Shown here one piece after another: positions 19,961 to 62,508 of a DNA stretch of 64,000 nt. The DNA comes from Turneriella sp. Its GTDB lineage: Bacteria; Spirochaetota; Leptospiria; Turneriellales; Turneriellaceae. The stretch is from NCBI GenBank assembly GCA_965279515.1, contig CBDIID010000003.1, positions 3,584,001 through 3,648,000 on the forward strand, in the 5' to 3' direction. The notes under the pieces are model-generated. The model had not been told where the DNA came from. It searched no databases and was given only the letters and a program-made list of their open reading frames with translations. The position numbers were made by a program, and so were the translations under genes. Numbering within the stretch: the first letter of the stretch is position 1; the number at the start of each line of letters is the position of its first letter.

Positions 19961-21943
19961 TTAGTTCGTCAGATTCTGGATATTTTCGAGCATCATGCCT
20001 TCTGTTAAGACCTGCGGCAAAAGCCGGAGGTTCCCTTGTTTGTCGTAAAAGGCATAGACCGGCACACCTGCACGGCCAAGGCGGGTGAGCTCGGCGGCGA
20101 TTATGTCATCGAGGTTGGTAAAATCTGCCTTGAAGAGTGACACGCCGCGCCCGGCAAAAGCCTTCATGACCTTTTCAGTAAAGGCGACCTGTTCATTGAC
20201 TTTGCAGCTCAGGCACCATTCGGCTGTAAAATCGATGAATACGGGCCTCTTTAAGGCCAGTTCGGCATCACGCGCCGCCGGGGAAAAATTGCGCCAGATA
20301 CCGGCTTCGGCATTCGTTTTTTCCGCCGGGGTTAATCCCACTATCGTAAAGCGGATGGCAAAACCCAATGCCAAAACCATAACAATGTACCGAAAGATTT
20401 TGACGGGTAGCCGCGCCGGGGCCACCTGGTGTTTGCCATAGATATAAAGAAAGAACGCAAAGATGAGGATGGCCGTCAGGAGCGAAAACGCGGCGTTTGT
20501 GAGCGCGGCGAAAACCCAGATGAGCCAGAGCGCCGAGCCCGCCATCATGAAGCCGAGCACACCTTTAAAGGTGATCAGCCACGCGCCGGGGCGCGGCAAC
20601 ATTTTACCCGCGCGCGGAAAAACCGCGATGAGCAAAAACGGCAGCGCCATACCGAGGCCGAGCAGCGGAAACATCAGAAAGCCGGCGGCGGCAGGCAGTG
20701 TGAGTGCGGCGCCGAGTGCGCTCGCCATAAAGGGCGCAGTGCAGGGCGTTGCGGCAATGACGGCAATGACCCCGGTCATCGCTTCGCCGATCGCGGGGCG
20801 GGTATTGAGCGCCGGCACGCGGATTTCGAAAACACCAAAAAGATTCAGCGCCATTGCAGCAAAGAGGAATGCCATTGCGGCGATGAACATCGGGTTCTGC
20901 ATTTGAAAACCCCAGCCGACCATCTGGCCGCTGGCGCGCAGAATCAGGAACAGTGCGCCGACCGCGCTGAAGGCGCCGATGACGCCGAGGGTGTAAGGCA
21001 GTGCATGACCCCACCCCGCCTTCGGCACCCCTCCCCTATTAGGGGAGGGGTTGGGGTGGGGTTTTGCATTCGCCAGCGACATAGCCTTGAGTGATAAAAC
21101 CGGCAGTACACAGGGCATAAAATTCAGCAGCAGCCCACCTAAGACAGCGAAGAGAAAAAATAATGCCACGGGCGTTTCATCGCCCGCTTGCGGCAAGGCT
21201 ACCGTATAGTGTGACCACGTATCTTTATCACGGATAGAGAGCAGTAAGCCGTCGCTGCGTTTCTTGCCTGTGGGAAATTCCAGCTGAAGTGCCTTACCAT
21301 CGATCACGGCTTTCGGTGCCGCAATGTCGACTTGTCCCAATGGATCGGCTATGGCGAGGACTTCGAGTGGCGCAACGGGGAGACACATGACAAAACGGTC
21401 AGCGGAGAGTTTTTCAATTTCAAAGGGCGATGGCCGGGGCAAGGCAGCACGCGTCTTGCTGAAAAAAATAACCTCATCGCTATCGCCGGTGCTTTTATCG
21501 GCGCTCTTTACGGGCAGCGAAAATGCCCCACCCGCTGGAATGCAGGACTCGCGGCATTCGAGGTAGTCAAGCTTGCCGGCAATTTTTCCCGCCGTCAGCG
21601 TGACGGGCACGAGCAAGACAACACGGTCGTGATACCCGTAAGATGTCAGCGGCGGCGCGACAATTTTTTCGGGCGGCGGGTAAACGATGTTGCCAAAGAC
21701 AATATCGGCGCCTGCGGGCTTGAGTGTCGCCGCGACGCCGCTGTCGCCGGGGTTCTTGTAATACGTGTGCCAGCCTTTGTCGAGGTCGATCTCCACAGCG
21801 ATGAAAAATTCTTCACCGGGTTTTGTCTCTAACCGCTCACTGCGCAGCTGGACTTTGCTGTGCAGGCCGCCGGGCCCCCGGAATGTTTTTGCGGTGAGCG
21901 CCGTCGCGAGAGACAGGAAAAACAAAACAAAGCACAAGCGCAT
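19961..21943 (-). CDS. dsbD: Thiol:disulfide interchange protein DsbD, carrying a palindromic segment
   Basis: WHTYYKNPGDSG, CRESC, LNFMPCVLPV, ATPCTAPF and FTAEWCLSCKVNE motifs; likely start MRLCF at 21943. Confidence 0.9.
   Translation of the reverse strand: MRLCFVLFFLSLATALTAKTFRGPGGLHSKVQLRSERLETKPGEEFFIAVEIDLDKGWHTYYKNPGDSGVAATLKPAGADIVFGNIVYPPPEKIVAPPLTSYGYHDRVVLLVPVTLTAGKIAGKLDYLECRESCIPAGGAFSLPVKSADKSTGDSDEVIFFSKTRAALPRPSPFEIEKLSADRFVMCLPVAPLEVLAIADPLGQVDIAAPKAVIDGKALQLEFPTGKKRSDGLLLSIRDKDTWSHYTVALPQAGDETPVALFFLFAVLGGLLLNFMPCVLPVLSLKAMSLANAKPHPNPSPNRGGVPKAGWGHALPYTLGVIGAFSAVGALFLILRASGQMVGWGFQMQNPMFIAAMAFLFAAMALNLFGVFEIRVPALNTRPAIGEAMTGVIAVIAATPCTAPFMASALGAALTLPAAAGFLMFPLLGLGMALPFLLIAVFPRAGKMLPRPGAWLITFKGVLGFMMAGSALWLIWVFAALTNAAFSLLTAILIFAFFLYIYGKHQVAPARLPVKIFRYIVMVLALGFAIRFTIVGLTPAEKTNAEAGIWRNFSPAARDAELALKRPVFIDFTAEWCLSCKVNEQVAFTEKVMKAFAGRGVSLFKADFTNLDDIIAAELTRLGRAGVPVYAFYDKQGNLRLLPQVLTEGMMLENIQNLTN
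21008..21062. repeat. Short palindromic element (family A), read in frame within dsbD
   Basis: ACCCCACCCC-GCCTTCGGC-ACCCCTCCCCTATTAGGGGAGGGGT-T-GGGGTGGGGT; related to 35981.. and 61258.. Confidence 0.85.
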
Positions 21944-35277: not shown

Positions 35278-35981
35278 AACTCGAAAAAACCGGCGACCCG
35301 AAGAAAACACCCGCGGTCTTTCTGCACGGTTATGGTGCGCCTCCCAGGCTCTACCTGGACTTTGTCAGGCGCCTCGCGGAAAATTATTATGTCTACGTGC
35401 CTGAAATCTTCGGCATGAACGGTATCTGCCGCCGTGATTTTTTCGGCAACGTCGAAGCTTTGAGCCAAATGATGCGTGAGCATGATCTGGGGCAGAGCCT
35501 GGTTGTCGGCCATTCGTACGGCGCACTTGCGGCGATGCATCTGGCCGCGGAGTTTCCGTCGCTGCAGCGCGCCATCGCTGTAAATCCGCTGCTGCCTGAA
35601 ATTTTTACCCCTGATAAATTCAAGCTGCAGCTCGGTAACATGCAGCGTGACCTGAAATACGCCACGGGTGAGCTGCGCGGTATGCTCGCGAACCCCGGCG
35701 TCGGCATTGCTTATGGCATCAACGTCATTGCAAACCCGCTGGGGTATATCGAAGGCGCGGCGCGTGCCGTCGCGAGCCGGCTGCCTGAAAAACGCAGCGA
35801 GGTTCCCGTCGAACTCGTCTACGCCGATCTCGATACGCTTTTTCATATTGAGAACGACGATCTCTCCAAATGGCGCGGCGTGTTGCCGAAGCTGAAATTC
35901 ACACCGGTACCCGATTACAGCCATAACTGGCTGATCTACCATGGCTCGTATGCCTACGATACGATGAGGGGAATTTTGTGA
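35274..35981 (+). CDS. Alpha/beta hydrolase
   Basis: FLHGYG and VGHSYGA motifs; ATGA overlap with the upstream gene. Confidence 0.88.
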   Translation: MKLEKTGDPKKTPAVFLHGYGAPPRLYLDFVRRLAENYYVYVPEIFGMNGICRRDFFGNVEALSQMMREHDLGQSLVVGHSYGALAAMHLAAEFPSLQRAIAVNPLLPEIFTPDKFKLQLGNMQRDLKYATGELRGMLANPGVGIAYGINVIANPLGYIEGAARAVASRLPEKRSEVPVELVYADLDTLFHIENDDLSKWRGVLPKLKFTPVPDYSHNWLIYHGSYAYDTMRGIL

Positions 35982-36446
35982 CCCCACCCCGGCCTTCGGC
36001 CACCCCTCCCCACTAACGTGGAGAGGGGTTTTCGGAAAGTATGGCGATTAAGAACAAAGCCCGCAGTCTTCGAAAGAGTATGACTGATGCAGAAGAGGTG
36101 CTCTGGGAAAAATTGCGAAATCACCGTTTTCATGGTCTTCAGTTTAGGAGACAATATCCGGTTAGTCAGCGATACATTTTGGATTTTTACTGCGCTAAGA
36201 TTAGATTAGGGATTGAGATCGACGGAAAGATTCATGAGGGCAAACATATGAAAAGAAACGACACATTACGCACCGAAAGTCTAAATGCAAAGGGTATTAG
36301 AATTTTGCGATTTTCAAATTCCGAGGTCGTCGAAAAACTTCAGTTAGTTCTAGAGAAGATATTCTCACAGTTTCCCCCCTCTCCACGTCAGCCGTTGGCC
36401 AAGAGGCCACCGGCCTATTGGTGGGGAGGGGGTGAGGGGGTGGGGT
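35981..36446 (+). mobile_element. Putative small mobile cassette: DUF559 nuclease gene between hairpin-rich ends
   Basis: Terminal IR ACCCCACCCC (35981-35990) / GGGGTGGGGT (36437-36446); GTGA direct repeat at 35978 and 36445; AT-rich gene body. Confidence 0.65.
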
Positions 36447-36448
36447 GA
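36041..36448 (+). CDS. DUF559 / Vsr-like endonuclease-domain protein
   Basis: ARSLRKSMTDAEEVLWEKLR, FRRQYPV, YILDFYC, IEIDGKIH and ILRFSNSEV motifs. Confidence 0.92.
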   Translation: MAIKNKARSLRKSMTDAEEVLWEKLRNHRFHGLQFRRQYPVSQRYILDFYCAKIRLGIEIDGKIHEGKHMKRNDTLRTESLNAKGIRILRFSNSEVVEKLQLVLEKIFSQFPPSPRQPLAKRPPAYWWGGGEGVG

Positions 36449-46626: not shown

Positions 46627-46732
46627 ATCTCTGGCGCGTACGGCCGCGATGAGCGAAGTGAATCTCCCCTTAGGGAAAGTACGCGAGCACCAAATGGCCC
46701 ATAGCGAGCGCAGCAGGTAATTATTGTTACAT
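46627..46732 (-). repeat. Partial copy of a structured attC-like repeat (family C)
   Basis: GGCCGCGATGAGCGAAG.GAA.CTCCCCTTAGGG and CGCAGCAGGTAA shared with 50064..50308. Confidence 0.75.
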
Positions 46733-46736
46733 GCCC

Positions 46737-47456
46737 TTAGCGTTGTATTGAATCGGCTTCGGTCACTGTTTCCTGAAGAAAAATAGAGCCTTTGCCGTCT
46801 TTGACGACCATTTTACCGCCTTTTGGCAGACCTTTGCCCCATTTGCCTTTTACTTCGATAAGTGCAGGCAGCCGATCATACTTTTGTAAGGACCCAAGAT
46901 ATGAAAGAAGACGTTCGTTTTTCTTGATAAAGTCATAAAAATCTTTGCGGATGACTCTTACGATATCAAATTTTAAGAGCAGCATGCCGTCGCCATCAGG
47001 CAAATTGTGTTGCCAAATGCCGTCATACGTGCAATAATCAACCGCAAAGCCTTCGTGTCTTGGAGGTACGGAGTTACCATCTTTATGGAACATCGCTTCA
47101 AATAGATCGCAGCTGCCTAAGATGCTTGTAAAGATCCCCTTTCCTGCCATCTCATCGTTTAGCCATTCGCCTATGTACCGGCCTCCACTGGAGAATATCT
47201 GCGTACCACGACCGTGGCGCTTGCCTTCAGACCAGTCTCCTGAATAGCCATACACCCTATCTTTTTTAAAAGCCTTTAGAGTCCCTTTACCATGAAATTT
47301 TTTATTTTGGAAATTTCCCTCATAATCGGAGCCATTCTTCAAGCTCAATCTGCCAAATCCATTTTCGCAATTTCCTTCACAGACTCCGGCTGCCGAAGTC
47401 AAACCTTGAGGGAACAGGAAAAATATGGTAATTAATTTTAGAAGGCTTCTGAGCAT
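46737..47456 (-). CDS. MORN-repeat secreted protein
   Basis: CEGNCENGFG; YEGNFQNKKFHGKG, YSGDWSEGKRHGRG and YIGEWLNDEMAGKG repeats. Confidence 0.88.
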   Translation of the reverse strand: MLRSLLKLITIFFLFPQGLTSAAGVCEGNCENGFGRLSLKNGSDYEGNFQNKKFHGKGTLKAFKKDRVYGYSGDWSEGKRHGRGTQIFSSGGRYIGEWLNDEMAGKGIFTSILGSCDLFEAMFHKDGNSVPPRHEGFAVDYCTYDGIWQHNLPDGDGMLLLKFDIVRVIRKDFYDFIKKNERLLSYLGSLQKYDRLPALIEVKGKWGKGLPKGGKMVVKDGKGSIFLQETVTEADSIQR

Positions 47457-47561
47457 AATAATTCCGCTAATGGCACACGACGTTGGATTTTACGCTGACG
47501 TTTTTTGATGCTTGTGTCAATTATTCAATCTGTAAAGTCGATTTGCGTCAAAAACTGTGGT

Positions 47562-47688
47562 CGTAGCGGCTCTGAAGGCAGAGACTCGCCTTCGGCTCGT
47601 CGCGCGACAAAGCACAAAATAATCAGCCCGCTTGCCGCTGGCAAGGCAACGCCTTGTGCTTTGTCAGCGATCTTGTGGCGCGTAGGGC
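47562..47688 (-). repeat. Partial copy of the structured repeat (family C)
   Basis: CTCTGAAGGCAGAGAC..CAAAGCAC..CCCGCTTGCCGCTGGCAAGGCAACGC..GTAGGGC shared with 50064..50190. Confidence 0.8.
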
Positions 47689-47863
47689 TGGGCCACAACG
47701 GATAACTTCTCGCAATTAGTATTCCAACACATGCCCCACCGTAAATAGACTTTACGCTTGATAGACCATGGGGTGCACAGCCTCGGTGGTAAGCCCTTGT
47801 GTTTTGTACCATAATCGCATACGCAAGACACCATAACTTTTTCATGCCTGCGCGGAGGCGTAA

Positions 47864-48541
47864 ATGCGTCTAGCGGCTTGGGCAAGTCTGTTGCTCGCGG
47901 AACTCCTGTTCATGGGTCATTTGGCAGCGATGAATCCGGAACCAGAAAAACCGACGCCTTCATCCCCACAGTCAGCAGCGAAACCCGAAGCCGTCCCCGG
48001 GGATTTTTGGCAGCGTGTTGAGGTTCATATCGGCGCGGGAGGCGGCTTTCACTTTGGCGCGAACAGCCTTTTCCGTTATGGAGTCAGCCTTTCCGAGTCC
48101 TTGGAATTCAGGTATGACAGGAATTTCGGTCTCTTTATCGGTTTTTCCTTCGGGCAACTGAATACAAAAAATGCCGAACTCATCGCGGGTAACTATTCGC
48201 TGAAGTTGGCTGAAGGTGGCGGCCTCAATCTCTTGTCTGCGCAGTTAGCGCCGCAATTCAGTTACTTTTTCGCCGACAAAATGCATGTGTCTCTAGCCGC
48301 CGGGGTTTCGCTCGTGCAACTTTATTCACGTGTATTCTATCCGGATGCGATTATTTCCGTTCTTGTTATTCCCGCCTTTTGGTATGAAGCTGCCGACAGA
48401 CTCGAATTAGGCGGTCGGGTAGCGATAAGTTATGGGAAGCTGAGCGGGGTCAGTGCCAATGGATCGGATTTGACGCTGACGAAAAGTGTTACGGTTTTAG
48501 ATATTGCCCTGATACTGGGAGCCCGCTACAGAATAAAATAG
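47864..48541 (+). CDS. Outer-membrane beta-barrel protein
   Basis: Signal peptide, Pro-rich linker, strands ending LGARYRIK. Confidence 0.7.
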   Translation: MRLAAWASLLLAELLFMGHLAAMNPEPEKPTPSSPQSAAKPEAVPGDFWQRVEVHIGAGGGFHFGANSLFRYGVSLSESLEFRYDRNFGLFIGFSFGQLNTKNAELIAGNYSLKLAEGGGLNLLSAQLAPQFSYFFADKMHVSLAAGVSLVQLYSRVFYPDAIISVLVIPAFWYEAADRLELGGRVAISYGKLSGVSANGSDLTLTKSVTVLDIALILGARYRIK

Positions 48542-48542
48542 C

Positions 48543-49784
48543 TCATTTGTAATATTTGGGCGAACCGGAATTCCAGCGGTTGGCCACGATCTGATCGACT
48601 TCAGCCCAGGTTGTGGGAGGGTTTGCCCAGAAAACCACATCATCCAGATAACCGCGGAAGTACCTGTCGATGTTGTCGTAATAAGATCCAACGGTAAAGA
48701 AGCTATTCACTTGCCAGAGCGTCGACAATGTACTGGTGGCTTCGCTCCGGCTCTGCCCGTCGACGTACATCCGCACCTTAACGGAATCGACTGTATTGAT
48801 CTTAGCGACAACAACGTAATGCCATTGATCGTCGAAAACGTTTGCCGTGGATGTGACAACCGTCGTGGTTCCATTAGAAAGATATAACCGTAAACTTGGG
48901 TTTTGAATGAGCACAGACCACCCTGTGCCGGAACCTGATCCGCCCCAGGCAAAATTGCCCACGAGGCCCTGGAGATTAAAACTGTCCGCCGATTTCATCC
49001 AGAATTCCACGAGAAAATATTGTGTTGCAAAAACGCTGTTGTTGTTCCGGAAGTTCGTAGACGCAGTGTGGTATGGGCCGCGTGCGTTGCCGAAATATCC
49101 GGCAATGCTGTTGGTTGTACCGTTGGCCGTAAGGGGATATGTCCCGCGCGAGTCGGCGATGCCTCCCGTCGTCTCATCCATTTTCCAGTGCGTGGTCAGG
49201 CCGGTGGGGTAAGACAGATAATCTGCATTGAACGTAACGCGAATCGTGTAGTTTCCGGTATTCGGGCTGCCGATGCCACTGCCCGCGACGCGGATATAGT
49301 ATTTCCCCGGACTATTAAAGCGACCGTTGATCGTTGAACAAGGATTTGGTACGGGGCCGCTTACAGTTGAGGCGTTATCATTGGAGCTCAGTACAGTTGT
49401 GCCATCGGTAGAAAGTAGAATCAGAGTCGTATCAAGGCTACAGATATTTGTAGCAAGGTCATAGGTTAAAAAGGTGTACGTGCCCGCCGTATCGGTAACA
49501 GTCAGTGCGTAATAATCCACGTCTCCTACCGGCGTAATGCTTGAATTAATTGCAGTTCCGTTCGTCAGGTTCGTCGCGCAGGCAGCGGTATCGTTTCCAT
49601 CATTCGGGCAAGCGGGCGGCGGTGTCGGAGGAGGCGTCGAAGACCCCGAACCCGTTCCGGAAGTTGTGCCCGAGCCACCACCAGTCTTGGAATTGTCGTC
49701 CATTGTCAGGCTAGCACTCTTTGCGCACCCGGCCCCAAGCAAAGTCATTGCCAGTAAATAACAGACTGTGAGGGTGGATCGCAT
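48543..49784 (-). CDS. Surface lipoprotein with PPC-like and LamG (concanavalin-like) domains
   Basis: Lipobox GAGC; GDVDYY..DTTL..NDN; HWKMDE, VEFWMK, DQWHYV, MYVDG and FRGYLDDV motifs. Confidence 0.85.
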   Translation of the reverse strand: MRSTLTVCYLLAMTLLGAGCAKSASLTMDDNSKTGGGSGTTSGTGSGSSTPPPTPPPACPNDGNDTAACATNLTNGTAINSSITPVGDVDYYALTVTDTAGTYTFLTYDLATNICSLDTTLILLSTDGTTVLSSNDNASTVSGPVPNPCSTINGRFNSPGKYYIRVAGSGIGSPNTGNYTIRVTFNADYLSYPTGLTTHWKMDETTGGIADSRGTYPLTANGTTNSIAGYFGNARGPYHTASTNFRNNNSVFATQYFLVEFWMKSADSFNLQGLVGNFAWGGSGSGTGWSVLIQNPSLRLYLSNGTTTVVTSTANVFDDQWHYVVVAKINTVDSVKVRMYVDGQSRSEATSTLSTLWQVNSFFTVGSYYDNIDRYFRGYLDDVVFWANPPTTWAEVDQIVANRWNSGSPKYYK

Positions 49785-50063
49785 AGGTGCTTACGGGATG
49801 AGCGCCGAAAAGACAAAATGTCAACAATTTTTCATATGATATATCCGAAACTACACGGCATGTCGTTGCTACTAGGATTGCCTCACATGTCTCTTGCGCC
49901 TGAGAGACCTTAGCGGAGCTTCATTTCTACGTTTTCATCAGCATCTGGTTGCACCATCGATACGACGTCGGCGAATAACAAAGGCTGAGATGTTTCAAGC
50001 AACGGAGAATTCGCCTGAGACTTAATGACGCTTTGTTCAACTTTTCCGCTGGTAAGATCTGCC

Positions 50064-50308
50064 CGTAGCGCCTCTGAAGGCAGAGACGCGCCTACGGCTC
50101 GTCACGCGGCAAAGCACCAAACAAGCGTCCCGCTTGCCGCTGGCAAGGCAACGCGTTGTGCTGTGTCCGCGATCTTTTGGCAGGTAGGGCCGCGATGAGC
50201 GAAGCGAACCTCCCCTTAGGGGGCACGCGCGACGAGTCTTCGAGTCTCCGTCTTCGGTAGAGCTGCTGCACCGAACATAGCGCAGCAGGTAAATTTTGCT
50301 TGGCGAAG
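50064..50308 (-). repeat. Longest copy of the structured attC-like repeat (family C)
   Basis: Contains both the 46.6-kb and 47.6-kb segments joined; begins right after the stop of 50315..51127. Confidence 0.8.
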
Positions 50309-50314
50309 AACCGG

Positions 50315-51127
50315 CTAGTCACCACGGCTGCCGAAAATGCCAAGTTTTGCGGCAGCATTGCCTTTTTGGATATTACCTATTAATGACATGTATGCTTTTG
50401 CGGGCAAAGTTCGATAGAAGGCACTAATGATTGCCTTAAAGGGGGGATTTGTATCAACGTCATAATCCTGATTAGGTGCATAACCCTCTTTTTTAGCATA
50501 ATACAGCATGGCGGCTACTAAATTTTCAAAGAGGAGACTCCAGTTCGATGGAGCTTTTTCGAAATGTGGAGAGACTCTCTCAGATAACATAGTGATGTCC
50601 ATGTCAACGTAAAGCAAAAAGGCGTCAGCGCCATCTACAGGCTGCCCAGCTTTTGTATGAAAAATCGTCTCGGATCTATAGTCTTCCGTTCGTTCGGCCA
50701 GATTCAGACGAACAATCTCCATTTTGACTGCGTCGAGATCTTCCTTTAAGCTTCCAGACAGAGCTGTTAACTCGGTTCGAATTTTATCAAATTCCTGTTT
50801 TTCCACAAGTCTTGTCATAGTAAAATAGAGAGCGATAATTGTCGTCAAACCAAGCAGAATCGAAATTAATAGAATATAATGCTCTCTTTCACGCTCGAAA
50901 ATGCGCATTAGCTTTTCCTCCGGTAAGGCGCCGGAGAATTTGGTCAACTGGGAATTAAGCTCAGTCAATGAATCTTTCGAAATCTTAAGTCCATTCGCTT
51001 CGGGAGATACGTTCTCTATTTTCAAGGAAACATTTATTGTCGGAATAGATCTTGTACCATAAAGAAAAAAGGCAAAAAGCGCTATCGTTAAAATGTATAG
51101 TGTAATGATGAATGTTTTGTTTAGCAT
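50315..51127 (-). CDS. Hypothetical membrane protein (two TM helices)
   Basis: AT-rich ORF; likely start MLNKTF with a GGAG RBS. Confidence 0.6.
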   Translation of the reverse strand: MLNKTFIITLYILTIALFAFFLYGTRSIPTINVSLKIENVSPEANGLKISKDSLTELNSQLTKFSGALPEEKLMRIFEREREHYILLISILLGLTTIIALYFTMTRLVEKQEFDKIRTELTALSGSLKEDLDAVKMEIVRLNLAERTEDYRSETIFHTKAGQPVDGADAFLLYVDMDITMLSERVSPHFEKAPSNWSLLFENLVAAMLYYAKKEGYAPNQDYDVDTNPPFKAIISAFYRTLPAKAYMSLIGNIQKGNAAAKLGIFGSRGD

Positions 51128-51215
51128 ATAATCTCCGGTTTTTGGCCCAACGTTTATTCTGCGAACCAATCCTAGAATCTTTCGTCAAACAATTAATCCC
51201 CATGCACCGACTGAG

Positions 51216-51478
51216 TCCTATCATGCGGATAATGCCCAAGGTCCGCTTGAACTTCCCTATTTCCCATGATTCACCCGCCGGTTCTGGCGGGGTATGTCAG
51301 AAAGAATCTCCATCGCCCAGCGCTGGCCCGCAAAACATCCGGACCGTATACAGCTCTATTCTTTTCCGACGCCGAACGGTGTCAAAATTTCCATCGCGCT
51401 CGAAGAGATGGGCTTGCCTTATGAAGCGCATCGCGTCGATATTCTCCAGGACGAAAGCCGCACAGTCGAATATCTTTC
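51216..51478 (+). pseudogene. Duplicated upstream region and 5' fragment of the gst gene
   Basis: Near-identical to 52389..52650; encodes MSERISIAQRWP...DESRT and then diverges. Confidence 0.85.
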
Positions 51479-51608
51479 AAGCGAATGTCGTTGCGGTCGA
51501 CCCAGAACGGTTCGAGGCCGCGACCTTCGGCATCGGAAATTTCGTAAGATAGCGATTCCTCTTTGTTATACCACTCGAGGGTCAGGGAGCCTTGATAAGA
51601 TTTTTGGT

Positions 51609-52007
51609 TTATTCCCAATCTTCTAGCCGAATGCCTGAGACTCGTGAAAACTCCTTTGTATTGTGGGTGACGAGAATTGTATCTTTTGCAACCGCCGTGG
51701 CAGCAATGAGAAGATCATACGGGCCAATCGGAGTGCCTGCTTTTTCGAGGGTAGCGCGAATTTCACCGCATTTATCGGCGATCTGGTCGTCGACGTGAAT
51801 ACTCGAAAAAGAACCAATGAATTCGCGAATCAACGGCAGTTTTTTCTGCGGATTGCTGCTCTTATGAGCACCATAGAGCAATTCAAAACGGACAATCGAA
51901 GGGATCGCAATATCCGCGCTGAGAGCTGCCGAGATTTTTTCTTTAACTTTCGGCGACGAGCCCTTCAGGATCTGAATACAGACGTTCGTATCGAGAATGT
52001 ATTTCAC
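51609..52007 (-). CDS. vapC: VapC PIN-domain toxin
   Basis: YILDTNVCI, ELLYGA, PIGPYDLLIAATA and LVTHNTKEF motifs. Confidence 0.95.
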   Translation of the reverse strand: MKYILDTNVCIQILKGSSPKVKEKISAALSADIAIPSIVRFELLYGAHKSSNPQKKLPLIREFIGSFSSIHVDDQIADKCGEIRATLEKAGTPIGPYDLLIAATAVAKDTILVTHNTKEFSRVSGIRLEDWE

Positions 52008-52216
52008 AACGGTTCACGTTTTTCAAATTCACCCTGCGGCGCACGTTCCGGAAAATCGGGAATAGAGCCGAAGAAATCAGCTAATGATTTGCCACCCGCC
52101 GCTCTTGGCTCATCGACCAGAACGATAATTTCCCCACGTTTATGCGCCATGTCGCTCGGGATCGTCAAAGTAACGGTTTCAGGCAGGTCTTCATAGGTAG
52201 TACGCATCGCGTTCAT
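52004..52216 (-). CDS. Antitoxin (VapB-like)
   Basis: 70 aa; GTGA overlap with vapC; ends DFPERAPQGEFEKREPL. Confidence 0.8.
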   Translation of the reverse strand: MNAMRTTYEDLPETVTLTIPSDMAHKRGEIIVLVDEPRAAGGKSLADFFGSIPDFPERAPQGEFEKREPL

Positions 52217-52465
52217 ATTTCCCTCAAATCAGCGTTTTCACAGTCGTGTACGGCGTCAAGAAACAGCCGCCGCAGCCGCCGCAGAGCAAAGCAAGCGCTT
52301 ATAATACCGTTCCCCAGGTTCAATTCAATGTGCTTGAAATCGGGAGACTTTTCGTCATAGTATCTTTCAGTAAGGTCTTCTTTCTAATTCCTATTATGCG
52401 GATAATGCCCAAGGTCCGCTGAATTTCCCTATTTCGCATGATTCACCCGCCGGTTCTGGCGGCAC

Positions 52466-53158
52466 ATGTCAGAAAGAATCTCGATCGCCCAGCGCTGGCC
52501 CGCAAAACATCCGGACCGTATACAGCTCTATTCTTTTCCGACGCCGAACGGTGTCAAAATTTCCATCGCGCTCGAAGAGATGGGTTTGCCTTATGAAGCG
52601 CATCGGGTCAACATTCTCCAGGACGAAAGCCGCACAGCCGAATTTTTGTCGCTGAACCCGAACGGGAAGATTCCTGCGATCATCGACCCGAAAGGGCCCG
52701 ATGGCAATGCTATCCGCCTGTTTGAATCGGGCGCGATTCTGCTCTATCTCGCGGAAAAATCGGGAAAACTTTTGCCCGTCGATGCCGCGCGCATGTACGA
52801 GACGATCCAATGGGTGTTTTTTCAGATGGCGGCGATCGGGCCGATGTTCGGGCAGCTGGGATATTTTCTAAAATTTGCGGGCAAGCAGATCGAAGACAAA
52901 CGGCCGCTCGAACGGTATGTCGAAGAATCGAAACGGCTTCTGGGCGTGCTCGACGCGCACCTGACCGGGCGTGATTGGTTCATGGGCGAAGAGTACACGA
53001 TTGCCGACGTGGCGCATATCGGCTGGGTCGAAAACCTGATCGGCTTCTATGGCGCGCGTGATCTCGTGGGTTTCGATAACTTTAAAGCGGTATCACGCTG
53101 GCTTGAGCGCTCTCTCGCCCGCCCGGCGGTGCAGCGCGGTCTGAAGATACCGGCTTAA
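52466..53158 (+). CDS. Glutathione S-transferase (YfcG/YghU-like, TPNG type)
   Basis: PTPNGVK, LNPNGKIPAI, FESGAIL and YTIAD motifs. Confidence 0.93.
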   Translation: MSERISIAQRWPAKHPDRIQLYSFPTPNGVKISIALEEMGLPYEAHRVNILQDESRTAEFLSLNPNGKIPAIIDPKGPDGNAIRLFESGAILLYLAEKSGKLLPVDAARMYETIQWVFFQMAAIGPMFGQLGYFLKFAGKQIEDKRPLERYVEESKRLLGVLDAHLTGRDWFMGEEYTIADVAHIGWVENLIGFYGARDLVGFDNFKAVSRWLERSLARPAVQRGLKIPA

Positions 53159-61258: not shown

Positions 61259-61318
61259 AACCCCTCCCCAACCCCTCCCCTATTAGGGGAGGGGTGCCCG
61301 AAGGGCGGGGTGGGGTTT
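61258..61318. repeat. Short palindromic element (family A), inverted relative to 21008
   Basis: ACCCCTCCCCTATTAGGGGAGGGGT is identical to 21027-21051; followed by GCCC-GAA-GGGC and GGGGTGGGGT. Confidence 0.85.
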
Positions 61319-62508
61319 CCGCCGCGGCGAATCTTTCTAACCGCGAACGCCATCTCGTCGCCCTGTGGCGCGCCTATCTCGACCATCCCACGGCGCGGCA
61401 GGCCGACAAGTGGCTCGCGCAGTATTTCCGCGATCACAAGGCATACGGTAAGAAAGACCGCGCCTGGTACAGTGAGGAATTTTTCTCCCTGCTGCGCCGG
61501 GCCGTGGCTTTTTTGCCCGAAGATAAGACCAAAGATGCCGGGACGGTTTGGCACGAGTTGAAACTCGCCCCTATCCCCCAGCCCCTTTCCCCTAGTCAGG
61601 GGAAAGGGGAGCACAGTGCTCCTCCCCCAGACTTGGGGCGAACGCTGCCCCAAACATGGGTCGAATGGCTGAAGAACTCTTCACTGCCTGACGCAGCGAT
61701 TCCCGGTTTTCTGGAGCAGCTTGCGACCAAACCCCCTTTGTACCTGCGTGCCAATTACCCCGACAAGGTCAGTGAGATCGAAACCGAACTCAGGGCGGCC
61801 GGTTATGCCGTCACGACGACAAAGCGCGATTCGGGACTTGTCACCTTTGCCGTGCAGGGGCAGAAGCCGATCTATGAACTGGCCTGCCTGAAAGCCGGTC
61901 TCATCGAAATCCAGGACCTGGCCTCGCAGCTTTTGGGCGAGGCTGTCGATGCCCACCCGGGCATGGCGGTGTGGGATGTCTGCGCGGGCGGCGGCGGCAA
62001 AACGCTGCAGATCGCCTCGCAGATGCAGAACCGCGGCGTACTCTATGCCTCTGACATCCGCGACTACAAGCTCGACGAATTGAAGCTGCGTGCCCGCCGG
62101 GGGGGATTTCATAATGTGCGCCGGTTTGTTTACGACGCAGAGACTTCGCCCGAGCTTACAAAAGAAGTCAAAAACTCGGGCGGTTTTCACCGTATTCTCG
62201 TCGATGCGCCTTGCACCGCTTCGGGTACTTTGCGCCGCAACCCCGACGTGCGTTACCGCATCATGCCTGGTGACCCCGAAAAGTTCTCTGAGCTACAGCT
62301 GAAAATTCTGACTGCGGTGCACCCTCACCTGAAGCTTGGCGGCAAACTCATCTATGCAACCTGCAGTGTTTTCAGGGAAGAGAATGAAAAAGTTGTGGAA
62401 AAATTTTTGCTTGGCTGTCCCGGCTTTTCCCTCAGTGAGGCAAAGTGTGTCGGCTCGCCTGAGATCGACGCAGACACCATGTTCTTCGCCGTTCTCGAAA
62501 GGAAATGA
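61294..62508 (+). CDS. RsmB/NOP2-family RNA m5C methyltransferase
   Basis: IQDLASQ, WDVCAGGGGKT, LVDAPCTASG..RRNPD and YATCS motifs; start uncertain because it lies in a repeat. Confidence 0.9.
   Translation: MPEGRGGVSAAANLSNRERHLVALWRAYLDHPTARQADKWLAQYFRDHKAYGKKDRAWYSEEFFSLLRRAVAFLPEDKTKDAGTVWHELKLAPIPQPLSPSQGKGEHSAPPPDLGRTLPQTWVEWLKNSSLPDAAIPGFLEQLATKPPLYLRANYPDKVSEIETELRAAGYAVTTTKRDSGLVTFAVQGQKPIYELACLKAGLIEIQDLASQLLGEAVDAHPGMAVWDVCAGGGGKTLQIASQMQNRGVLYASDIRDYKLDELKLRARRGGFHNVRRFVYDAETSPELTKEVKNSGGFHRILVDAPCTASGTLRRNPDVRYRIMPGDPEKFSELQLKILTAVHPHLKLGGKLIYATCSVFREENEKVVEKFLLGCPGFSLSEAKCVGSPEIDADTMFFAVLERK
61568..61639. repeat. In-frame C/G-tract palindrome inside the RsmB-type gene
   Basis: CCCCTTTCCCCT-AGTC-AGGGGAAAGGGG, GAGCAC-A-GTGCTC and CCCCA-GACT-TGGGG hairpins; encodes PIPQPLSPSQGKGEHSAPPPDLG. 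Confidence 0.7.

Follow-up and report, generated by a model that had tools for sequence, protein, structure and literature searches.

A gene-less, BoxC-like palindromic repeat in frame in dsbD of Turneriella, and DUF559 cassettes with matching ends

The dsbD gene of a Turneriella sp. genome carries a nested palindromic repeat of 55 bp, which is located at positions 21008..21062 of the window and is translated in frame from the minus strand; the repeat itself is assigned no strand. This element is a real, gene-less member of a BoxC/triplex-like repeat family and belongs to the subfamily with a TATTA/TAATA centre. Cassettes containing a DUF559 nuclease gene bear matching ends and occur in internally deleted forms, and at orthologous sites of related genomes members of the family have been gained repeatedly, have replaced loop codons and have been swapped for one another. 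The window is the whole stretch of 64,000 nucleotides that was analysed (G000:C3:3584001-3648000, G000 being the genome from which it comes).

The left terminal arm ACCCCACCCC (21008..21017, plus strand), which is preceded by TG at 21006-7, is a perfect inverted repeat of 21053-21062. The latter is the right terminal arm GGGGTGGGGT (21053..21062, plus strand), preceded by TT and a candidate third strand; the flanks of the dsbD copy read TG/TT. Between the arms lie a small 3-bp hairpin GCC-TTC-GGC (21018..21026, minus strand), whose minus-strand loop reads c-GAA-g, and a long 10-bp polypyrimidine/polypurine hairpin CCCCTCCCCT/AGGGGAGGGG with a 3-nt loop (21028..21050, no strand assigned). As single-stranded DNA the 55 bp are predicted to fold at -27.3 kcal/mol (z -6.9), and 0 of 200 shuffled sequences folded equally well. 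ViennaRNA predicts a three-way junction on either strand (about -27 kcal/mol, z -6.6 to -6.9), which competes with a triplex. The computed class II intrastrand-triplex geometry fits on the plus strand for 21028-21050 together with 21053-21062, giving 10 triads and 0 mismatches; our own implementation of the ranges in PMC4666352 was used (stem 6-15, pyrimidine arm, 1-6-nt loop, purine arm, 1-6-nt loop, antiparallel purine third strand). In size and ends the element is MITE-like, having perfect terminal inverted repeats of 10 bp, a length of <500 bp and multiple copies. Rfam contains nothing that reaches the gathering score for it (best E 0.085). REP/RAYT (TnpA-REP) systems have a RAYT gene nearby and bear a terminal tag, GTAG or CGTC; no such tag is present at the ends of the dsbD element.

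A preliminary description of this DNA had regarded the element as a copy of the ends of the DUF559 cassette in the same window. The left end of that cassette (35981..36028, plus strand, ACTAACGT-centre subfamily; the stop codon of the hydrolase gene upstream ends on its first base) indeed likewise begins TG-ACCCCACCCC. Also correct is the remark that the small stem varies around a constant TTC loop: GCC is found in the dsbD copy, GGCC-TTC-GGCC in the cassette and GCCC-TTC-GGGC at 61260-61316. The GNA triloop extends further, since 21 of 29 small hairpins with varying stems read c-GNA-g on one strand and T-N-C on the other. The claim that element and cassette have the same hairpins is right for the small TTC-loop hairpin and wrong for the long one, whose centre is of the TATTA type in dsbD and of the ACTAACGT type in the cassette. 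Because these centres differ, the dsbD element was not copied from the ends of the window cassette; it belongs to a sister subfamily of 55-59 bp that was found in 6 genomes of the genus. An assembly artefact is ruled out by the presence of the unit in these 6 genomes and of a near-identical copy at one site shared with G001.

Many further copies exist; in all, the family occupies about 87 loci in G000. The scan for hairpin cores gave 119 cores at 87 loci, and 0 and 0 in two order-4 Markov genomes; the profile HMM that served as search model for the family gave 116 matches at E<0.01 and 81 merged loci at E<0.05, with none at E<1 in the reversed genome. By a strict pattern 75 hairpins were counted in G000 and 5-59 in each of the 13/13 further genomes of the genus, and 0 in 6/6 genomes from other genera of the family, three of which are <90% complete. 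Full copies of the 55-59-bp type number about 7 in G000; the type occurs also in G001, G004, G005, G007 and G011 and was not found in G002 or G008. Of the termini of the family, 42/104 follow a stop triplet, against a background of 4.7%, and 28 of 104 abut the stop of a called gene exactly, as judged by our own simple gene caller. Nine loci lie well inside called genes, to which xdh is added, so that at least 10 of the ~87 loci are in frame. According to Pfam, the genes with internal copies are fmt, dxr, feoB, xdh and those for a DegT aminotransferase, an E2 acyltransferase, a BcrAD-type protein and a methyltransferase, besides dsbD and rsmB.

The window holds a second copy of the same subfamily as the dsbD element (61260..61316, minus strand, 57 bp), located just past the htpG stop, and a 75-bp member of another subfamily (61566..61640, plus strand), which is in frame in a loop of RsmB where G001 and G004 hold different members. 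The rsmB ORF has a single common start codon in frame (GTG, 61294), and this lies within the 61260-61316 copy. The element ends at 61260-61316 and 36374-36447 bear G/A-rich Shine-Dalgarno-like runs and overlap predicted GTG starts; therefore the repeat may supply translation starts to downstream genes. Elsewhere the window contains low-scoring ORFs that are surrounded by repeats (46632-52650): a direct repeat of 231 nt at 51248/52420, another of 127 nt at 47562/50064, and a shorter repeat at 46632/50178. Among the ORFs, 51609-52216 presumably encodes a PIN-type toxin-antitoxin pair, a guess made from the N-terminal sequence.

The architecture resembles that of the BoxC/PIT/TMECO repeats (Holder et al. 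2015, PMC4666352). According to the available text of that paper, both have a C-rich arm, a short loop, a G-rich arm, a short linker and a second G-rich arm, both show class II triplex geometry and two end types paired in inverted orientation, and both are patchily present, turn over locally between relatives and have no known mobilising enzyme. The strict TMECO consensus reported there, CCCTCNCCC N3-6 GGGNGAGGG N3 GGGNGAGGG (PMC4666352), fails: the dsbD element needs 4 substitutions, and the main contig of G000 contains 0 exact, 0 one-mismatch and 7 two-mismatch matches. Unlike TMECO as described in that text, the dsbD element has a terminal arm on either side of a single hairpin and, in addition, a GNA mini-hairpin. 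The Turneriella family also lies in frame inside genes, whereas TMECO is described as always intergenic in E. coli K-12, and it brackets DUF559 genes, which the available text does not mention for TMECO (PMC4666352).

Forty element clusters of G001 were examined, of which 31 could be mapped to G000; 23 of these 31 sites are occupied there. When four query-led sites are left out, 20/27 G001 sites are occupied in G000, against a background of 0.6-2.9%, the upper value being that of gene-end windows. Inspection by eye shows a difference in subfamily, length or orientation at about 10 of the 20 co-occupied sites. G011 is more distant: 5/25 of its mappable sites are occupied in G000, and five were unmappable; the binomial p of 8e-4 is overstated, as kin are not independent.

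Within genes, the fmt loop is filled in 5/12 genomes, each time by a different member; the other 7 genomes keep an ancestral loop of 75-81 nt. The loops of dxr (3/13), rsmB (3/11), xdh (5/6), feoB (5/6) and E2 (2/2) are filled to varying extents, as is the degT loop (1/5), where three others contain other palindromes. All fills in the compared coding loops preserve the reading frame. In a five-gene tree the genomes with a filled fmt are G000 with G001 (support 100), G003 with G008 (100, with the empty G006 as sister at 99), and G011, which sits in a clade of support 100 alongside the empty G002. Filled fmt alleles lack about 14 ancestral codons (~40 nt), and for that reason excision cannot restore the empty form. 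Judged from these alleles and the tree, the history of fmt requires at least three gains, or transfer of filled alleles followed by swaps. An identical 59-bp copy with near-identical flanks is present in G007 and G011, so that sharing between clades does occur; filled alleles may have been passed on by transfer or simply kept, and the number of independent gains is accordingly less secure.

The junctions are variable. At L200 a GA/TGA duplication of 2-3 nt is seen, while L282/L303 show a net 57 bp for a 59-bp unit (-2 nt). No consistent target duplication was found among the readable junctions, and other sites are too diverged. A fixed duplication of 2 bp, by which 55+2 would give 19 codons, was not confirmed at the junctions read.

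We also considered whether the elements always land on pre-existing hairpins and folded 31 loops that contain no recognizable family member or another palindrome; this is the case at some sites only. The 7 empty fmt loops all fold unremarkably (z -1.0 to +1.1). Unusual folding was found for 2/9 dxr loops (z -8.3 and -5.5) and 1/8 rsmB loops (z -3.3), with values of about -2.3 for two further rsmB loops. By these z scores, pre-existing hairpins account for some sites, such as dxr in G005 and G008, and not for fmt. The 36-nt "empty" dxr loops L245 (G008) and L246 (G005) are near-perfect coding hairpins of 18-20 bp with a 3-nt loop, which differ between the two genomes yet stay paired (z -8.3 and -5.5); G004 and G007, relatives of G005, have a BoxC-like unit at the same dxr spot. 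In relatives, other and unrelated repeats, either palindromic or short tandem ones, occupy the same loops or junctions at L251, L253 and L252 (degT), and likewise at L146, L152, L153 (rsmB) and L157 (upstream of rsmB). The unrelated palindromes in the degT, dxr and rsmB loops suggest that permissive loops play a part as well. At G000 C3:1096051-1096121, the ortholog of L269, there seems, by eye, to be a twin hairpin with GGA loops, where G011 has an in-gene BoxC-like unit.

The window cassette consists of the left end described above, a gene for a Vsr-like nuclease of 135 aa without internal stop (36041..36448, plus strand) and a right end at about 36374..36446 (plus strand). The right end overlaps both the stop of the DUF559 gene and the predicted start (GTG, 36445) of the gene that follows, which encodes an alpha/beta-hydrolase and whose orthologs have an ATG a few codons earlier. 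The cassette site is filled in G000 and G001, is an empty gap of 14-37 nt in 10 other genomes and is not syntenic in one. Like known DUF559/Vsr-like nucleases (Pfam PF04480) the cassette protein is a full-length DUF559 and resembles PDB 3HRL (E 9e-15); the similarity to the homing-endonuclease domain 3R3P is weak and not significant (E 0.47). Unlike them, it has repeats on both sides, is insertion-polymorphic and lacks a separate DNA-binding domain. I-Bth0305I is, as we assume, grouped with the DUF559/Vsr-like nucleases.

G000 encodes two DUF559 genes. The first is that of the window cassette, whose ends are inverted; the second (L104, G000 C3:1444700-1446000) lies between two direct, related repeats of ~120 bp with ACCACCCC ends, an arrangement also seen in G003 and G005. 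DUF559 is present in 13/20 genomes of the family, and a family hairpin lies within ~220 nt of 22/26 DUF559 matches, compared with ~1% at random positions; the four matches without a nearby family hairpin are L107, L116, L119 and L127. According to a protein tree and ends read by eye, DUF559 clades share end types at different sites, although three of the pairs compared are the same site and not independent. The left arm of the G004 cassette equals the first 29 nt of the dsbD element, and the TATTA-type end of the dsbD copy is absent from the G000 cassettes.

Internally deleted units are found as well. G000 C3:3433479-3433772 is an internally deleted cassette that is intact at this place in G005 and G009, and another G000 site keeps only the two tails of a G001 unit that is 262 nt longer. 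With intact counterparts in relatives, these two cases indicate that gene-less forms can arise by internal deletion. The earlier idea that the dsbD element is a non-autonomous derivative of a DUF559 cassette thus stands insofar as the element is a gene-less member of a multi-copy family in which internally deleted cassettes occur, and has to be given up as regards the window cassette as its source. At L113 (G013) and L107 (G015) whole DUF559 modules with hairpin ends lie within long open frames of 1343 and 625 aa, respectively, that resemble DNA methyltransferase genes; in G000 the ortholog of L113 is empty. L167 (G001 C61) and L187 (G001 C146) are units of ~300 bp with family ends and AT-rich, non-DUF559 interiors, and the matching G000 sites are empty or collapsed.

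We propose that the family spreads by nuclease-triggered copy-and-replace and not by cut-and-paste, with DUF559 as the candidate driver, and consider the odds of this to be about even. The cassette-made DUF559 protein would nick at or beside a folded repeat when it is single-stranded, the folded target being the GNA-capped hairpin, the three-way junction or the triplex. Host repair would then copy another family member into the break by way of the short C-run/G-run ends common to all members. At occupied sites such copying would exchange the interior or turn it round, and occasionally it would seed new sites; selection would keep only those events that spare genes, namely those just past a stop codon and those in frame in permissive loops. 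The flanked DUF559 genes (22/26), the matching ends within clades, the filled and empty states of the window cassette site, the deleted and collapsed units, the shared sites (20/27), the refills of fmt, the differing contents of the DsbD loop in relatives, the variable junctions and the requirement for a Caulobacter DUF559 protein in a DNA-damage response (PMC12907096) are counted in its favour. Against a role of DUF559 are counted the 99% complete G011, which has 33 strict hairpins and no DUF559 match, the lack of a TATTA-type cassette end in G000, and the numbers of DUF559 genes and hairpins, which do not track each other (2/75 in G000, 6/21 in G005, 1/50 in G004). G006 and G010 likewise gave no DUF559 match, and G015 and G016 have DUF559 and 0 strict hairpins. 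The unrelated palindromes in the same loops and the reading of the Caulobacter protein as a mismatch-repair enzyme (PMC12907096) also count against it. The matching cassette ends could reflect linkage only, and the shared sites could be old insertions plus ordinary RecA conversion.

The latter possibilities lead to an explanation by the host alone, which we judge unlikely and still the most serious competitor. Triplex or hairpin stalling, slippage, template switching and RecA conversion would turn the repeats over, DUF559 would be caught cargo, for example a solitary mismatch-repair nuclease, and a few permissive loops would explain the shared sites. This agrees with the hairpins of G011, with the other palindrome types in the same loops and with the gene-less spacers and non-DUF559 interiors between paired ends. 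The available text of PMC4666352 ties the motif to local instability and reports no transposon link in E. coli. From the accessible part of PMC12907096, the Caulobacter DUF559 protein VsrA is required for a DNA-damage response in a methyltransferase mutant, and its authors propose a T:G mismatch-repair enzyme. By analogy, VsrA suggests that DUF559 acts on DNA in vivo. Turnover by the host alone leaves unexplained why 22/26 DUF559 genes of several clades at unrelated sites are flanked, each with its own end type, how new sites with intact symmetric ends originate, and why GNA loops are strand-specific on varying stems (21/29).

It is improbable, in our estimation, that a classical MITE- or REP-like element is moved in trans by an unseen transposase (DDE or HUH/RAYT) and that loop codons were lost later by compensating deletion. 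The perfect 10-bp terminal inverted repeats, the clean L200 site with its duplication of 2-3 nt, one clean insertion of +19 codons and the GNA-capped hairpins, which suggest a ssDNA step as they do in HUH systems, would suit such an element. However, no transposase is located between family ends in 26/26 DUF559 loci and two other G001 interiors, the junction signature is inconsistent, and swaps at occupied sites are far commoner than random targeting predicts.

The host gene dsbD (19961..21943, minus strand) encodes a protein of 660 aa with DsbD_N, DsbD_TM and thioredoxin domains, in which all six redox cysteines (C130/134, C278, C401, C577/580) were found. Its dN/dS against G001 is 0.16 overall and 0.09 for the TM region minus the loop. 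By these sequence measures dsbD is intact and purifying selection is acting on the gene; it looks functional and the insert looks tolerated. As had been described, the peptide PHPNPSPNRGGVPKAGWG is read in frame from the minus strand after the first TM Cys motif, as residues 295-312 just past the PC motif (Cys278). In an AlphaFold2 model from a 100-sequence alignment (mean pLDDT 89.6, pTM 0.79) residues 293-310 form a coil between the helices 280-292 and 311-337 with a pLDDT of 61-70, the lowest of the TM domain, and the element peptide is thus predicted to sit in the TM1-TM2 loop. DsbD has a periplasmic N-domain and eight TM segments, and by the established topology we take this loop to be cytoplasmic.

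None of 119 homologs carries the peptide, which is thus not conserved among them. The distance between the MPC motif and the helix motif that follows is 41 aa here, against 31-32 aa in 96/120 listed proteins and 26 to 40 aa in nine close orthologs; in P0004, where the flanks match and the loop looks unfilled, it is 30 aa. Whether the peptide is an insertion or a replacement, a question raised before, is answered with both in part: the net gain is +9 to +10 aa over the family mode and +11 over P0004, and since the peptide has 18 aa some loop codons must have been lost. In G001 the same loop holds, at the DNA level, the right half of another subfamily. From protein sequence only, the loop peptide of P0005 fits the G001-type subfamily (score 60, reached by 0/100 shuffles) and that of P0003, whose protein is 96% identical to G001 DsbD, fits the 55-bp type in opposite orientation (score 55, 0/100 shuffles); the best of 108 distant DsbD loops scored 45 against element peptides. 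The idea that the GGGEKKSPW loops of P0002 and P0006-8 are element remnants found no support, as 25-68/100 shuffles score as well. Internal support in the DsbD tree is low, and P0002-P0008 are known from protein sequence only. The closest named homologs are labelled Turneriella sp., and the relatives retrieved from metagenomes with the DsbD alignment were all distant (31-42% identity).

The suggestion that the element adds peptides to proteins was not supported as it stood, since copies differ in frame and strand and no particular peptide is added. The unit has four open frames, three of which are used across different genes or genomes; as the copies sit in different frames, the peptide is a passenger. 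The 55-bp element is likely a tolerated Pro/Gly-rich passenger in DsbD and probably neutral for DsbD itself. That the insert is kept for dsbD function, as a peptide interaction site or as an RNA/DNA structure pacing translation or transcription near the first membrane helix, is very improbable despite the intact gene under purifying selection and the occupied loop in several lineages: a selected peptide was rejected because peptide, frame, strand and length vary among close orthologs, three of the four open frames are used, nothing resembling an element peptide is seen in P0004 or in 108 distant DsbD loops, and the insert region has the lowest AlphaFold2 confidence in the TM domain.

Two further groups of repeats are comparable, as far as the available text of PMC10969869 describes them. 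As in Rickettsia palindromic elements (RPE, PMC10969869), a palindrome lies in frame in unrelated metabolic genes in a fold-compatible manner; here in-frame copies are found in dsbD, rsmB, fmt, dxr, degT, feoB, E2 and xdh, with a coil in the dsbD model. Unlike the RPE of that text, which measure ~150 bp, the element is a G/C-run unit of 55-59 bp, is read in several frames and from both strands with no one peptide conserved, takes the place of loop codons, is refilled in the same loops by different subfamilies and has a candidate cognate nuclease. With prokaryotic MITEs it shares the short length, terminal inverted repeats, a stable fold, a non-coding-derived nature and formation by internal deletion of a larger, gene-bearing unit (PMC10969869); it differs in being GC-rich, in showing no consistent target duplication at the readable junctions and in that the gene-bearing units found encode a nuclease, not a transposase. 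The Caulobacter CIR are reported there as strictly intergenic (PMC10969869), unlike the in-gene Turneriella copies. No paper that pairs DUF559 with these repeats, and no relevant work on hot spots, was found in a body of literature that covers few subscription journals and neither of the first reports on RPE and CIR.

For BoxC/triplex repeats, to our knowledge, no mobilising enzyme has been known since the 1990s, and we know of no settled function for DUF559. DUF559 cassettes and BoxC-like ends may together represent an undescribed class of selfish elements, which we put forward tentatively and with less than even confidence: a minimal Vsr-like nuclease would cut the folded ssDNA ends and host repair would copy the element in, so that it homes onto earlier copies and a few permissive loops and rewrites loops of the essential genes fmt, dxr and dsbD repeatedly without a transposase. 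The pairing of DUF559 with BoxC-like repeats allows a direct bench test with one protein of 135 aa and one oligonucleotide of 55 nt. Dated on the species tree against ancestral empty alleles, the repeated refilling of loops means that coding palindromes are not one-off accidents, and it suggests that hypervariable Pro/Gly-rich loops of essential proteins can be repeat footprints.
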